From NCBI GenBank assembly GCA_035463475.1, contig DATHTE010000003.1, positions 6,670 through 70,669 on the forward strand: a DNA stretch of 64,000 nucleotides, read 5' to 3'. Under the pieces are notes generated by a model. That model was not told where the DNA came from, did not search any database, and saw only the letters and a list, made by a program, of their open reading frames with translations. The position numbers were made by a program, and so were the translations under genes. This DNA comes from Vicinamibacterales bacterium. Lineage in GTDB: Bacteria > Acidobacteriota > Vicinamibacteria > Vicinamibacterales > 2-12-FULL-66-21. Within the stretch, counting starts at the first letter, position 1, and each line of letters begins with the position of its first letter. Positions 55,453 through 60,979 of the stretch are shown here, piece after piece.

Positions 55453-58287
55453 TCAACGCGTGGCGCTGGTCGTCTGCCGACCTGCCTGTGGCACTTCGAC
55501 CGAGCGGGCCGCGCCGTAGTAGATCCCATTGAACAGAAACGGGAACGTGGCGTGTGTCCCACCGCGGAACGTAATTTCCGGACCGAACAGAAACACCTTC
55601 CCCTTGCCAAGCGGGATCTCCAGGGCTGCCGCACCGTCTTTGAGGTAGCCCTGGCCCCACCCCCATCCGCTGCGTACCGGTGCCTCGGCGGAGTACCAGG
55701 CCACCACCTTCACGTCCCGCGACGTGGCCGTCGGTGCCAATCTGAAGACCGGGCTGCGATTGAAGAACACATCCACCTGATCGGGCATCCCGTACGCGAG
55801 CGGGTTGGTGTTATCCACGCGAGCTTTGACCAGCGCGCCCGGCACGAAGTACTTCTCCGATGGCAGCGGCCGCTCCTGACCCGTCGCGGTGCGCTCGACG
55901 AGGTGGTCGGCGACCGGCAGCCCGAGGTGGTAGGCGAGATTCGTGGCCGTGCCCGCGGCGATGATCGTGCCACCGTCCTCAACAAAGGTCCTGAGTTGCG
56001 GGATGGTCTTCGCCACCGTCACGGTGCCGACCTTGCCCGCCCACTCGGGCGGGAGATTGGATGGAGGGGCGCTCTCGCCACGCCTCGGCGGTTCCCTATC
56101 GGTTCGTGGAACGCCGTCCATGAACACGATGACGTCGTACCTGGCTCTGAGATTGCCGGCATCGAGCTGCGGGGGGTACACGACTTCGAACGTGGGGAAC
56201 TGGAACTGCTGCTCGAACAGCCATCGGACCCAGCCAGAGGGCATCGAGCCTCCGTACTGGTCCACCAGTCCCACTCTGACCGGCTGCAACTTGTAGGCCT
56301 CGCCGGTCGGTGGCCGGGCCGTCCCTTCGAATGTCAGGCCTATCTCAGCGGCCAATTTGTCGATCGCGGCGCGTGTAGTTGGCCGCGACGGGATGTAGAT
56401 CGTCCCAGGCGGGTACGATTTCCCGCCGACCGTGGTCCCTGCCTTCAGCCAGTACACGTCCTCCTTGGCGCCCAACAACCGGTTGGTCGCCGTGAACGCA
56501 TCCTTCACGGCGTGGCTCAGCAGATAGCCTGCCGGAGATTCTCCGGCACCTGCCACGACGCTGCCCGCAGGAATCTTGATCAGCTGCCCGAAGGGCAACT
56601 TCTCAAACGATCCCTCCAACGGATCGAGGATGCGATCGAATTGCACCCCCATCTGAAAGGCCAGCGTGTAGCCCGCCATGTCGTAGGGCGGCTTGGGTGG
56701 GCCCCCGGGATAGTAGAAGTCGTTCGGGTGGTTCTGCGGCTCCAGCATGTCGCGGAGGTGCGGGCGGTACGCCTGCGCCGCCTTGAGCACGTAGGATCCC
56801 GCCGCGTAGCTCTTTCCAGCGACCTGAAACGCACTCCTCGCCCGGTGCACCTCGATCCCCGCTTTGACGAGCATGTTCACGAACTTGGTCGCGGTCAGGA
56901 AATCGGGCTGGTCGGCGGGGATGATGTAGGCGCGCGGGTCCCGGCGCTCGGGCGTGCGCATGCTGTCGTAGTACTTGGACGGCACGACCTGCGCCGATCC
57001 CACACGGGTCTCACCCTCGCGTTGGGACCGTTCTGCCGTCGCCTCCTTGGCCGCGGCGGCTTTGGCCTCGTCGATCCACGTGGGCTGCAGCGTCCAATGA
57101 TCCTTGCTGCCGCGCTCGATCGAGTTCATCCCCATCCGCCAGCTTCGAAAGAGCCACTGATCCTTGTTGCGCGAGGCAACATCGAGGATGGCGCGCTGAG
57201 CGGAGAGGATGTAGTCAATGGACTGCTTGAAGTGCCAGACCCTCTGGGGCGGGATCGGCAATGGCACGTCCCCGTGCGGCAGCTGGCGATCGAGCACCAG
57301 CGGGATCTCCATGGGCGTCGGATGGCCGTGCGCCTCCGTCAGGATGCCGACCTGGTTATGGAACAGCGAGGTGGCGCGCTCCAGGCCATTGGCCCAGGTG
57401 GAGTAGGAGGCTTCGCTGCGCGACGCGGAGCCGGCCTTGCCTTCGGCGAGGAACCGGCTGGTAATCGCGGCGCCGACCTCGTCGATGCCGATGATGACGA
57501 GCGGATCCAGGTTGTAGTTGAAGGGATCGCGGAACGGCGGCACAAAGAGGATGGCCCCCTGCGGGCCCGTCTGGTGTGCGTTGTACGTGATCTGAGGCAT
57601 CCACTCGATGTACATCTGCCGATTGATCGCCTCGGTTTCCGGCTGGTTCGCCATGAACGAGTCGCGGTTGTTGTCGTGGCCGACGTACTTGTGGTACAGC
57701 CGCGGCAACTGCATGTTCCGCTGCTTCGGGTCCGGGTCGCGCATGTACCAGTTCGCGGTCAGCTCCAGCCCGTCGGGGTTGACCGGCACGAGCAGCAGAA
57801 TCACGTCGTTCAGGAAGCGCAGCGTCTCGGCGTCGTTCTGGCTCACCATCTGGTAGGCCTGCCAGAAGAGAACCTGGGAGTTGAGGATTTCGGTGGCGTG
57901 TAATCCGCCGTCCTCCCACACGACCGCCTTTCCCTCTGACGCGAGCGCTCGGGCCTGCGGCTCTGTGATGCCCTCGGCCCTTCCAAGCCTGTGTGAGATC
58001 TCTTTATAACGGGCGAGCTTCTTGTGGTTCTCGGGAGACGTGATGATGGCCATGACCATCGGCCGGCCTTCGGCCGTCTTCCCGATCTCGACGATCTTCA
58101 TCCGCTCCGACAGCTTGTCCAGCTGGTTCCAATAGTCCAGCAGCTGCGTGTAGTTCGCGACGAAGTAGTCGTCGCCGACGGTCGACGGGCCGACCTTAGG
58201 AGGAGGAACCGGCCCTTGCGCCTGGACGGCCGGGCAAACCGTGAGCGTCAGGACCGCGATGAGAGCGAGCCCAATCCTCTTCTTCAC
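55453..58287 (-). CDS. Secreted M14 zinc carboxypeptidase with C-terminal GATase-like domain
   Basis: GGLHATE (HxxE), NPDG, DNNRD, YNAHQ. Signal peptide from GTG 58287 (alternative start GTG 58329). Confidence 0.88.
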   Translation of the reverse strand: MKKRIGLALIAVLTLTVCPAVQAQGPVPPPKVGPSTVGDDYFVANYTQLLDYWNQLDKLSERMKIVEIGKTAEGRPMVMAIITSPENHKKLARYKEISHRLGRAEGITEPQARALASEGKAVVWEDGGLHATEILNSQVLFWQAYQMVSQNDAETLRFLNDVILLLVPVNPDGLELTANWYMRDPDPKQRNMQLPRLYHKYVGHDNNRDSFMANQPETEAINRQMYIEWMPQITYNAHQTGPQGAILFVPPFRDPFNYNLDPLVIIGIDEVGAAITSRFLAEGKAGSASRSEASYSTWANGLERATSLFHNQVGILTEAHGHPTPMEIPLVLDRQLPHGDVPLPIPPQRVWHFKQSIDYILSAQRAILDVASRNKDQWLFRSWRMGMNSIERGSKDHWTLQPTWIDEAKAAAAKEATAERSQREGETRVGSAQVVPSKYYDSMRTPERRDPRAYIIPADQPDFLTATKFVNMLVKAGIEVHRARSAFQVAGKSYAAGSYVLKAAQAYRPHLRDMLEPQNHPNDFYYPGGPPKPPYDMAGYTLAFQMGVQFDRILDPLEGSFEKLPFGQLIKIPAGSVVAGAGESPAGYLLSHAVKDAFTATNRLLGAKEDVYWLKAGTTVGGKSYPPGTIYIPSRPTTRAAIDKLAAEIGLTFEGTARPPTGEAYKLQPVRVGLVDQYGGSMPSGWVRWLFEQQFQFPTFEVVYPPQLDAGNLRARYDVIVFMDGVPRTDREPPRRGESAPPSNLPPEWAGKVGTVTVAKTIPQLRTFVEDGGTIIAAGTATNLAYHLGLPVADHLVERTATGQERPLPSEKYFVPGALVKARVDNTNPLAYGMPDQVDVFFNRSPVFRLAPTATSRDVKVVAWYSAEAPVRSGWGWGQGYLKDGAAALEIPLGKGKVFLFGPEITFRGGTHATFPFLFNGIYYGAARSVEVPQAGRQTTSATR

Positions 58288-58325: not shown

Positions 58326-58610
58326 TCACCGGGCCCGGAAATGCGTGGCGGGCTCCACGCCATGTGGGACGGCATAGCGGCGCACCGTCTCCAAGTCCTG
58401 GGACAGCATGTCCATCGCACGGCGCGTCCGCTCGATCTGGGTGTCGGTGAGCGTCTCACCCGAGGGCGGGAGTGCCGCGCCGGGCGTCTGGCCGGACACC
58501 TTCTCTGCAAGGCGAACCCCACCACCAGCCAGTCCCGTCATGCCGCGAACCGCCAGGAGCCCGCCAAGAGCAGCCGTGAAAGCTCGCCGTCCTTTGCTGA
58601 AGTTATTCAT
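58326..58610 (-). CDS. Small Tat-signal protein with AtzG/GatC-like C-terminus (putative amidase partner)
   Basis: KGRRAFTAALGGLLAV twin-Arg N-terminus; ends VPHGVEPATHFRAR (EPAxxF). Confidence 0.7.
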   Translation of the reverse strand: MNNFSKGRRAFTAALGGLLAVRGMTGLAGGGVRLAEKVSGQTPGAALPPSGETLTDTQIERTRRAMDMLSQDLETVRRYAVPHGVEPATHFRAR

Positions 58611-58647
58611 GTGACACCTTGCAGTTGGCCAGAGCCGAATTGGCCCG

Positions 58648-60069
58648 TCAGTCCAGCCTCGGATGGCGGGTATGCCAGCCGGTCGCGTCCTGGTACGCCT
58701 TCGCGAGGGTCATGACGGACGCCTCCTCAAAGCTGCGACCGACGAACTGAATGCCCACCGGCAGGCCGTCGACATACCCTGCGGGAACGCAAACGGCCGG
58801 TAGGCCAGTGAGGTTGGTAAAACTGGACGTCCTGGGTGCGGGGCGTGCGGGCCCCGCAGGCCGTGCCGGCGCGGGCGTAGACGCCGGTGGACGCGACGGG
58901 CCCTCGGCCGCCGGTTGCGCTGGACCGCCGGCGGGCGCCACCCACACGTCAACCGTCTTCATCAGCCGTGTGGCGTCGGCTTGCATCAGGGCGCGAATCT
59001 GCTGCGCCTTGAGGTACTGCACGGCCGGGATCACGCGCGCAGCGGGCAGAGTGTTCTTCCACGCCCTCGCGGCATCGTCGCTTAGCGTCGCGACGTGATC
59101 GTCGGTAATGAGATCCTCGAAGAAGAGCGCCGCTTCCGCGCCGCGCACCACCTCGAAAACCGAGTTGTAGGGGTAGTCCGGCAACTGGATCGGCTCGAGT
59201 GTCACACCGAGCCGTTCGATCGCGCCGAGCGCCTCTTTCATGATCGGCTTGACGGTCGCGTCGCGCAGTCCGTCGAACTCCGCCTCGACCACGCCAACTC
59301 GCAGTTTGGCAGGCGAGGCGCCGGGATCCCAGCGGTACGGCATTTCGACGGTGGACGGATCGCGCGGGTCAACGCCTCGGATCGCATCGAAGACAAGGCC
59401 GCAGTCTTCGACGGTTCGACAGATCGGTCCGACCTTGTCGATTGTCCAGCCGAGCGCCATCGCACCCGCCCGGCTCACCCGTCCGTAGGTTGGCCTGAGC
59501 GCGCTGACGCCACACACCGCAGTCGGGCCGATAAGCGATCCCATCGTCTCGGTTCCGACCGCGAAGCCGACCATTCCGGCCGCAGTTGCCGCCGCCGGCC
59601 CCGCTGAGGAACCACCGCTGGATCGAGTCGTGTCCCAGGGACACCGGGTCGTACCGCCGAACCAGCGCGCGCCGCGCGCCAGTTCGCCCATCGACAGCTT
59701 CGCGAGGAGCAGCGCGCCAGCGTCGCGGAGCTTTCCGACGACGGTCGCATCCTCGGCCGGTATCCGTTCCTCGTGATACTTGATGCCCCACGTCGTCCGA
59801 ATGCCCTTCGTGTCGAACAGATCCTTCAGGCCATACGGGATGCCGTGCAAGGGGCCGCGATAGCGGCCCTTTGCGATCTCCTGCTCCGCCTGGCGCGCCT
59901 CGGAACGCGCCCGTTCTTCGGTGAGAGTAATGACAGCGAGCAGCTTCGGATCGAGCCGCCTCATTCGCTCGAGACACGCCTCGGTGAGTTCGACCGGCGA
60001 CAGCCGCTTAGCCTTGATCTGCCGGGCGAGGTCGGTTACCGAGGAGAAGACCAGTTCTTCGCCTGCCAT
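58648..60069 (-). CDS. Amidase signature family enzyme without signal peptide
   Basis: GLKDLFD, AKLSMGELA, GGSSAG, GTETMGSL..P. Start MAGEELVF at 60069 with GGGAG SD. Confidence 0.9.
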   Translation of the reverse strand: MAGEELVFSSVTDLARQIKAKRLSPVELTEACLERMRRLDPKLLAVITLTEERARSEARQAEQEIAKGRYRGPLHGIPYGLKDLFDTKGIRTTWGIKYHEERIPAEDATVVGKLRDAGALLLAKLSMGELARGARWFGGTTRCPWDTTRSSGGSSAGPAAATAAGMVGFAVGTETMGSLIGPTAVCGVSALRPTYGRVSRAGAMALGWTIDKVGPICRTVEDCGLVFDAIRGVDPRDPSTVEMPYRWDPGASPAKLRVGVVEAEFDGLRDATVKPIMKEALGAIERLGVTLEPIQLPDYPYNSVFEVVRGAEAALFFEDLITDDHVATLSDDAARAWKNTLPAARVIPAVQYLKAQQIRALMQADATRLMKTVDVWVAPAGGPAQPAAEGPSRPPASTPAPARPAGPARPAPRTSSFTNLTGLPAVCVPAGYVDGLPVGIQFVGRSFEEASVMTLAKAYQDATGWHTRHPRLD

Positions 60070-60124
60070 GCGACGCTCCCGCGGCACGCGGCGGCGTGAT
60101 GTGACGCCGCGTGCCGGCACAGAA

Positions 60125-60979
60125 TTAACGACCGTTGGACGATGCGAGGGCCGAGCGCATTTCCTTGAGGGAGTTCCGCAACTGCCCCTGCAACATCTGG
60201 AAATCGGATCCAAGGCTGATCAACTTGTACCCGGCGGCCACCTTCTCCGCGATGTTCTTCGGGTTCGCGTTCGTGCCGGCGATCACGTTGCGCGCCAGAC
60301 ACAGCTTCAGGACTTTCGCGGCATCGTCGGCGGAGATATGAACCGTGTGAACGGCGGCGAGGCCGGGCGTCTCGATGATCTCCTTGGCGTTCTTGACGCC
60401 CTCCTCCGTCTCAATCATCGCCACGACCATGAGCTTGCCCTTCGGATTCAGCGGCCACAGCTCCGACGCCTCGTGGGTGGGCGCGCTGTTGACGCCCTGC
60501 AGGAGGGACTGCTCCGTGTACATGAAGATCGAGATGATCCGCTCCAACTCGGCACGGCTTTCGACAACGGGCACCCAGACTCCGCTTGCCGGGCCCACTC
60601 GGATGGATTCGGCGATCTCAAACCGGGGATCCCAGCCCGCTCGATGCCCCAGTTTGATGAGCACCGAAGGAGCTGGCTTCGGCTCCGACCGATATCGGCT
60701 GTTGAAGTCCGGCACCTCGAGGAGGAAGCTGTGCAGCGTTCGAAAGTCGTAGATGTCGTGCTCCACATCCGCGACGATGAAGTCGAGGTCGCTGGTCGCG
60801 AGCACCTTCGTGATCCGGGTCGCGCCCATCGCGCCCGTCCAGATGCCGATTGCCGGCTTACCTGCTGCCAGAATCGAGGCCAGGTTGTTCGCGGGTTCAT
60901 CCGCCTTCGGCGCTGCGGGTGCCAGAGTGACGATCAGCAGCGCCAGAACCAGTACGAGGACGCGTGTCGGTAATCTCAT
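60125..60979 (-). CDS. HpcH/HpaI aldolase/citrate lyase family protein with signal peptide
   Basis: GKPAIGIW, DFIVADVEH, LWPLNPKG.LMVVAMIET.EGVKN; N-terminus MRLPTRVLVLVLALLIVTLAPA; AGGAG SD. Confidence 0.78.
   Translation of the reverse strand: MRLPTRVLVLVLALLIVTLAPAAPKADEPANNLASILAAGKPAIGIWTGAMGATRITKVLATSDLDFIVADVEHDIYDFRTLHSFLLEVPDFNSRYRSEPKPAPSVLIKLGHRAGWDPRFEIAESIRVGPASGVWVPVVESRAELERIISIFMYTEQSLLQGVNSAPTHEASELWPLNPKGKLMVVAMIETEEGVKNAKEIIETPGLAAVHTVHISADDAAKVLKLCLARNVIAGTNANPKNIAEKVAAGYKLISLGSDFQMLQGQLRNSLKEMRSALASSNGR

Follow-up and report, generated by a model that had tools for sequence, protein, structure and literature searches.

How does an amidase without an export signal come to lie among genes for secreted proteins, and what is the function of the small protein encoded next to it? 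This question is raised by two adjacent genes in a 64,000-nucleotide stretch of DNA (hereafter the window) from a Vicinamibacterales bacterium of the Acidobacteriota (GenBank assembly GCA_035463475.1, contig DATHTE010000003.1, positions 6,670 to 70,669 of the forward strand). One of them encodes an amidase-signature enzyme, the other a protein of 94 residues with an N-terminus resembling a signal for twin-arginine translocation (Tat). A preliminary description had located the two open reading frames (ORFs) correctly, both on the minus strand (Table 1), and had proposed that the small protein escorts the amidase into the periplasm. The best explanation, to which we give a probability of about 0.65, is that the small protein has two roles, as an obligate AtzG/GatC-like subunit and as the carrier that takes the amidase out of the cytoplasm via Tat.

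The amidase matches the Pfam family PF01425 over residues 27-452 with 291.9 bits (cut-off 27; E-value 1.2e-86). Its Lys-cisSer-Ser triad is intact, with K82 (GLKD), S154/S155 (GGSSAG) and S178 (GTETMGS) at positions conserved in the family alignment. The best NCBIfam matches are AtzE-family and GatA models, all well under their cut-offs; those of the two AtzE models NF006631 and TIGR02715, for instance, were not reached (256 bits versus 461 and 248.9 versus 425.75, respectively). The nearest solved sequences are GatA, the peptide amidase Pam and AtzE. The N-terminus, MAGEELVFSSVTDL, coincides with the first column of the family alignment. A signal peptide missed through a wrong start codon was considered and rejected: the open frame can be lengthened only to a TTG at 60213, and the added part runs into the upstream gene and is hydrophilic, with a maximal Kyte-Doolittle(11) value of 1.03 versus 2.03 in the hydrophobic region of the small protein. 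It follows from the position of the start and the character of the upstream frame that the amidase has no signal peptide, as the preliminary description had claimed, and its close relatives (59-84% identity) are likewise unextended, all being 460-471 residues long. At 46-51% identity the relatives are mostly of 550-640 residues.

The small protein begins with MNNFSKGRRAFTAALGGLLAVRGMTGLAGGG (the start is also shown as KGRRAFTAALGGLLAV) and its C-terminus reads VEPATHFRAR. The GRRAF motif and the hydrophobic stretch attributed to it earlier are present; the EPATHF motif is not terminal as had been claimed, since three residues, RAR, lie beyond it. No Pfam or NCBIfam model matches the protein, the Tat-signal and GatC models included. 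Two single-sequence searches, one word-indexed over 5.8 billion proteins and the other an exhaustive phmmer search of 1.84 billion representatives, yielded three standalone relatives each, six in all, with 91-94 residues and 41-69% identity. Three further phmmer matches (890-1438 residues, 27% identity, several matched stretches) were taken as spurious. In the alignment of the seven sequences 21 residues are invariant, among them R8, R9, F11, G16 and the C-terminal E-P..FRAR. Neither search found the long amidases described below, so that a comparison of profiles with profiles was needed.

The long amidases carry an extra N-terminus of 100-145 residues, which consists of an RRxF signal, a GatC-like segment of the form ...AEKLxGLxFTDAE...Y..LR...IP.DTEPA..F.P and a linker of 30-40 residues. 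When the profile of the seven small proteins was aligned with that of 28 such extensions, the two matched over residues 6-92 of the small protein, signal included (hhalign probability 98.2%, E-value 3.6e-14). The fused homologues that the preliminary description had mentioned, with a Tat signal and a similar segment, and for which it had suggested a search, thus exist among the amidases of 550-640 residues, and the homology extends over the whole length of the small protein. Run against the 5.6-Mb genome from which the window derives, the fused-extension profile matched this small ORF and nothing else, and no fused amidase was found in that genome. These comparisons support, at the level of sequence, the view that the small protein corresponds, as a separate chain, to the extension of the fused amidases with its Tat signal and GatC-like segment. 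Fused and two-gene forms also differ within the catalytic chain: among 15 aligned family members, every two-gene form has a Pro/Ala-rich insert of about 30-35 residues between VAP and TNLTG, which the fused ones lack. This insert may fill a surface that the linker covers in the fused forms.

The fused extension leads in turn to GatC. Compared with 13 GatC sequences from related genomes, columns 40-104 of the extension align on GatC residues 3-66 (probability 82.6%, E-value 9.7e-6). Single extensions give weak but recurrent matches to TIGR00135 gatC (8 of 28, best E-value 2e-4) and to Gta3 (5 of 28); TAT_signal_seq is matched by 5 of the 28 and PF10518 by 3. The corresponding core of the small subunit, residues 37-94, comprises two predicted helices followed by VEPATHF, and ends in FRAR. 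Profile searches of the PDB with the small-protein and extension alignments returned chance-level matches, with no GatC or AtzG chain (6c62, 6c6g) at E-values up to 10. That the small protein might be the housekeeping GatC was rejected, as the genuine gatC-gatA genes lie on another contig of the genome.

The interface of the pair was approached by proxy, through the natural fusion P0022, which was modelled with AlphaFold2 from an alignment of 78 sequences (predicted local distance difference test, pLDDT, 89; predicted template modelling score 0.89). Its body superposes on GatA, Pam and AtzE. The signal, residues 1-37, is disordered (pLDDT below 50). The part equivalent to the small protein forms two helices and an extended strand (pLDDT 80-95): the helices at residues 43-53 and 60-81 and the non-regular stretch 82-127 all have pLDDT 77-95, and confidence of this kind in a non-regular stretch is as expected of a segment packed on the amidase body. 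The prediction of a complex that the preliminary description had suggested is covered in this way, with the extension of P0022 docked confidently, and for the pair itself by proxy only. From this fusion model and the precedent of GatC and AtzG we infer that the small protein and the amidase bind each other physically, and with the homology described above it is very probable that the small protein is a partner subunit of the amidase.

As to export, the N-terminus of the small protein can be divided into an n-region (MNNFSKG), the arginine pair, a hydrophobic h-region (AFTAALGGLLAV) and a c-region (RGMTGLA). Its RRAFT fits the default pattern of TatP, RR.[FGAVML][LITMVF]; 97% of the signals used to train TatP conform to this pattern, which, taken alone, gives 15% false positives among cytoplasmic proteins that bear an arginine pair (PMC1182353). 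The h-region has 12 uncharged residues, with a Kyte-Doolittle(11) value of 2.03, and is followed by R22; a site GLA/G (the slash marking cleavage) is plausible, if non-canonical. Judging from the sites ATA/T, ESA/T and ELA/G of relatives, cleavage is likely after A28 or A29. The Tat pathway itself should be available, for TatC is encoded in the window genome (E-value 6.8e-66, above the cut-off). The Tat signal proposed earlier thus stands in so far as the TatP expression fits and the arginine pair is conserved; the models TIGR01409 and PF10518 do not match it.

For the export signal, the comparative evidence outweighs that of the motif. The small-protein profile matched 65 of the 301 genomes of the class, from which 66 loci were fetched and analysed. 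Among them are 49 two-gene pairs, 33 with the small gene before the amidase and 16, including that of the window, with the amidase first. In 48 of the 49 small partners RR.[FLVIMW] is followed by at least 10 uncharged residues, and in the remaining one RREF by nine; the twin arginines and the uncharged stretch have thus been kept in all 49, though the flanking sequence diverged freely. By contrast, a hydrophobic N-terminus was found in none of the 47 partner amidases checked, and many of these have fewer than 10 open-frame codons upstream of the aligned start. The window pair and 48 others therefore fit the hitchhiker pattern of adjacent genes with a one-sided signal. Moreover, three partners have a canonical lipobox directly after the h-region (LAAC in L072 and L081, LAGC in L079), and about 25 more have a conserved Cys at its end, for example many family-f18 loci (ALWQQAC/AEV) as well as L046, L049 and L055-L058 (STAC/AEV, NAMC/AEV). 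A lipobox or Cys in this place makes sense only for a protein outside the cytoplasm. It suggests that these partners are Tat-exported lipoprotein carriers which would tether their amidase to the membrane.

The gene upstream of the window amidase, which encodes an HpcH/HpaI-like protein, shows a similar constancy. The order HpcH-like gene, amidase, small gene recurs in L001, L002, L003-L006, L047, L050 and L051, and it persists in relatives, from metagenomes as well as genomes, whose small protein is as little as 46% identical. The HpcH-like homologues all start with Sec-type signal peptides (e.g. L001, L003). Such a signal is unusual for the HpcH/HpaI family, and in the window clade the gene always lies directly upstream of the amidase.

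A twin-arginine signal on the partner only, beside a signal-less amidase, means that the folded pair is probably exported together. In the mechanism that we propose, the two genes would encode a hetero-oligomeric amidase working outside the cytoplasm, with the 473-residue protein as its catalytic subunit. The first ~28 residues of the small subunit would be the twin-arginine signal, and the mature remainder (~65 residues, a helical hairpin and an extended EPAxxF strand) would wrap onto the amidase. The complex would assemble in the cytoplasm, where TatBC would recognise the signal of the small subunit, and would cross the membrane folded, with the amidase as hitchhiker. Signal peptidase would then free a soluble periplasmic enzyme, which would act beside the other secreted hydrolases encoded at the locus and the HpcH-like protein, itself exported by Sec. 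Both the dependence on Tat and the co-export of the amidase we infer from sequences. The escort put forward in the preliminary description accordingly has homology, docking by proxy, conservation of the arginine pair, the lack of a signal in the 47 partner amidases, the presence of TatC and the secreted neighbours on its side; a split origin is not supported, and the Tat hidden Markov models (HMMs) do not match the small protein.

Several observations weigh against the proposal that the small protein is both an obligate subunit and a Tat carrier. R22 cuts the uncharged stretch short after 12 residues, and no textbook AxA is found in the c-region. Neither the Tat HMMs (TIGR01409, PF10518) nor any GatC model matches the small protein or its six homologues at E-values up to 10. 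Compared with GatC directly, the small-protein profile gives no significant match (E-value 0.16), so that the relationship to GatC is transitive, through the fused extension. Some fused relatives have Sec-type signals, from which it appears that the enzyme probably can fold after export; this weakens the argument for an obligatory use of Tat. Two short members of the amidase family (P0019 and P0054, at L008 and L009) have neither an adjacent small gene nor a signal, and the enzyme may accordingly not always need a partner. Finally, a genome of the same genus lacks the module. As regards P0019 and P0054, their partner may be encoded elsewhere, or they may be cytoplasmic forms.

Three other explanations can be set against this proposal. 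The one that survives best, unlikely as we consider it, agrees on export by Tat and differs on the fate of the signal, which would remain uncleaved (or be lipidated in other lineages) and anchor the amidase to the inner membrane, facing outwards, instead of leaving it free in the periplasm. The weak c-region of the window copy, with no clear AxA, fits this idea, as do those homologues whose h-region ends in a lipobox or a conserved Cys, and Tat-inserted anchored proteins are known (PMC10924467). However, the small protein of the window has no Cys, and the small residues that its closest relatives carry at -3 and -1, in the three sites given above, suit signal peptidase I.

It is a smaller possibility still that the pair is a cytoplasmic complex of the AtzEG kind, in which the small protein merely stabilises the amidase and the arginine pair with its hydrophobic surroundings is not a working signal. 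Both AtzEG and GatCA are cytoplasmic (PMC6219798), and the failure of the Tat HMMs and the shortness of the h-region, 12 residues before an Arg, point in the same direction. Against this, the arginine pair and the uncharged stretch persist in 49 of 49 partners despite divergent surroundings, and the GatC proteins of the same genomes have no such N-terminal extension. Furthermore, the homologous N-terminus of fused forms does match Tat models, lipoboxes occur in three lineages, and the neighbouring HpcH-like protein, conserved together with the pair, bears a Sec signal. A last explanation treats the two genes as unrelated neighbours: the small ORF would be mis-called, or would encode a secreted mini-protein independent of the amidase. 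It could appeal to the lack of a matching family model and to the mere six standalone relatives found database-wide, and is effectively refuted by the small protein's homology to a stretch contained in the chain of related amidases, by its position next to a signal-less amidase in 49 loci and in both gene orders, by its 21 residues invariant in seven sequences and by the presence of a Shine-Dalgarno-like site.

The history of the family was traced in two trees of the amidase domain, one with 185 rows and one with 68 rows rooted on six GatA sequences. In both, the fused forms make up a single derived clade, with a Shimodaira-Hasegawa-like approximate likelihood ratio test (SH-aLRT) support of 98-99, and two clades in which the small gene precedes the amidase branch first. 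Next come two clades that hold the amidase-first pairs, the window clade included (support 99-100), and the sister group of the fused forms is a small clade with the small gene first. From this topology the two-gene state in the order gatC-gatA looks ancestral, and the amidase-first order a rearrangement. The long 'Tat-amidases' of 550-640 residues look, from these sequences, to have arisen from the two-gene state by gene fusion. Fission of a fused gene was rejected, as the two-gene forms are basal in the tree rooted on GatA; the 'split' amidase of the preliminary description is therefore, in an evolutionary sense, not split, fusion being the derived event. We count it in favour of export that the fused clade, itself exported, is nested among two-gene clades. 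In the clade sister to the fused forms, one locus (L007, 3690-5443) has a 102-residue Tat/GatC-like ORF that ends 2 nt before the amidase start in another frame; this may represent the state before fusion, a fusion broken by a frameshift or a mistake in the sequencing.

A broader generalisation we regard as evenly balanced between true and false. It holds that the pairs constitute a large family of extracytoplasmic two-subunit amidases, in which a GatC-derived mini-subunit that acquired a Tat signal (in some lineages also a lipobox) would serve as obligate structural wrap and carrier at once. After AtzEG, the GatCA module would thereby have been put to new use a second time and independently, and the family would be a case of Tat hitchhiking by a cofactor-less hydrolase; the two-gene form would be ancestral, a single fusion would have produced the abundant single-chain 'Tat-amidases' of soil bacteria, and in the window clade the pair would belong to a periplasmic catabolic module with the HpcH/HpaI-like enzyme. 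The distribution of the amidase module is patchy. Besides the genome of the same genus, most genomes of the window's family (f1) are without it, and the closest genomic relatives of the module are found in family f21, of the same class and outside the window's order, which points to transfer or repeated loss. One genome contains two fused amidases and one small-gene-first pair within 10 kb (L061, G095:C1:4511000-4521300), as well as a copy of the small gene broken by a TAA stop (G095:C1:4445805-4446011).

Table 1. Position of the amidase pair, its parts and its neighbours in the window.
Feature	Positions	Strand	Basis
HpcH/HpaI-like protein, 284 aa, with Sec-type signal peptide MRLPTRVLVLVLALLIVTLAPAAPKA	60125..60979	(-)	Pfam PF03328, E 1.9e-9
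Amidase-signature enzyme, 473 aa, predicted catalytic subunit	58648..60069	(-)	Pfam PF01425
Pro/Ala-rich amidase insert, residues 379-415	58825..58935	(-)	alignment of 15 family members
Intergenic spacer, 37 nt, from amidase stop to small-gene start	58611..58647	(-)	sequence
Shine-Dalgarno-like AAGG before small gene	58617-58620	(-)	sequence
Small-subunit gene, 94 aa, stop codon counted in	58326..58610	(-)	translation; hhalign to fused extension
Predicted Tat signal peptide, residues 1-29	58524..58610	(-)	motif and homologue conservation
Twin-arginine codons R8, R9	58584..58589	(-)	translation; RR in 49/49 small partners
GatC-like core of small subunit, residues 37-94	58329..58502	(-)	alignment with fused extension columns ~40-96
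M14 carboxypeptidase-like protein	58329 or 58287 down to 55453	(-)	start codon ambiguous
BNR/sortilin-repeat protein	55407-52120	(-)	window gene run

A scan of the 37-nt spacer found no terminator-like site between the amidase and the small gene. That the pair might be read through as one chain was ruled out, the frames being different and the amidase gene coming first. The preliminary description was right about the secreted neighbours: besides the HpcH-like protein with its Sec signal, the M14-like, BNR and TonB-receptor-like proteins of the window have signal-like N-termini, which fits an extracytoplasmic site of action. For the M14-like gene, a GTG start at 58329 would overlap the stop of the small gene as GTGA, and the alternative GTG at 58287 yields a classical signal, MKKRIGLALIAVLTLTVCPAVQA/QG.

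Traces of the locus were also met in two sediment runs labelled as metagenomic RNA-Seq, in which short contigs match stretches of the amidase and of the HpcH-like gene exactly (window 59077-60687) and none covers the small gene. The exact match means that the same strain occurs beyond the source soil sample. The genes may be transcribed; this evidence of expression is weak, as DNA may be present in the runs.

Most documented cases of Tat hitchhiking concern redox enzymes with a cofactor. If the proposed mechanism is true, quaternary structure alone would be the reason for the use of Tat, in that an amidase needs its GatC-like wrap before it leaves the cell. The design is widespread, with 65 of the 301 genomes of the class matching the small-protein profile and the family being large in soil genomes of the Acidobacteriota type. 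Since neither Pfam nor NCBIfam has a model for the small subunit, its annotation is 'hypothetical', and a cytoplasmic location is routinely assumed for the amidase; recognition of the pair would change the predicted localisation and pathway of many 'amidase' genes. In addition, two genes in either order and then a single fused gene would form a natural series for the study of how a hetero-oligomer becomes a single chain, and the small subunit could provide a compact natural carrier tag for the export of folded amidases.

The two components of this proposal are separately established, namely Tat hitchhiking by means of a small signal-bearing subunit and GatC-like partners of amidase-signature enzymes; a full-text literature search found no paper that joins them. 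The nearest parallel for the partnership is the 1-carboxybiuret hydrolase AtzG-AtzE of Pseudomonas sp. ADP, where AtzG is a non-catalytic, GatC-derived protein of 68 residues and the obligate partner of AtzE, which is insoluble without it, the pair being derived from GatCA (PMC6219798). The mature small protein (predicted at ~65 residues) is similar in size to AtzG, and AtzE supplies the top NCBIfam models and a top structural match for the window amidase. Unlike the window pair, however, AtzEG is cytoplasmic, AtzG has no signal peptide and the genes follow each other in the order atzG, atzE, whereas in the window the amidase comes first.

With GatC-GatA of the GatCAB transamidosome the pair shares GatA as the best solved relative of its amidase, and the fused extension, aligned on GatC 3-66, shows helices and then a (V/T)EP..H/F strand. 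It differs in that the small protein is without the C-terminal third of GatC, a protein of about 100 residues, and ends three residues past the EPAxxF strand, in that no GatB partner is found at the window pair, and in that GatC has no signal. Pam of Stenotrophomonas maltophilia is another amidase-signature enzyme and a near solved relative (E-values 6.7e-53 and 4.5e-51). Pam is periplasmic. By contrast with the window pair, it is a single chain that carries its own signal and is not known to have a GatC-like partner. The fused long amidases, named amidase or GatA-family amidase in databases, belong to the same catalytic family at 46-51% identity, and the small protein is homologous over its whole length, with its signal, to the first 100-145 residues of their chains; the fused amidases differ in being single polypeptides with a linker of 30-40 residues in place and no Pro/Ala-rich insert, and a minority of them use Sec-type signals.

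For the mode of export the parallels are found among the Tat hitchhiker carriers. The gamma subunit of the flavin adenine dinucleotide (FAD)-dependent glucose dehydrogenase (FAD-GDH) of Burkholderia is a small carrier of this type, needed for the folding and secretion of its catalytic subunit (PMC6719666), and PaoABC is an established hitchhiker system (PMC4273604). In these, as in HybO/HybC, the signal resides on one subunit and a signal-less catalytic subunit is exported with it in the folded state, which is the arrangement proposed for the window pair. The carrier in the window has no sequence kinship to FAD-GDH gamma, HybO or the PaoABC carrier, being a GatC-derived wrap, and where their cargoes are cofactor-containing redox enzymes, the cargo here would be a cofactor-less hydrolase.

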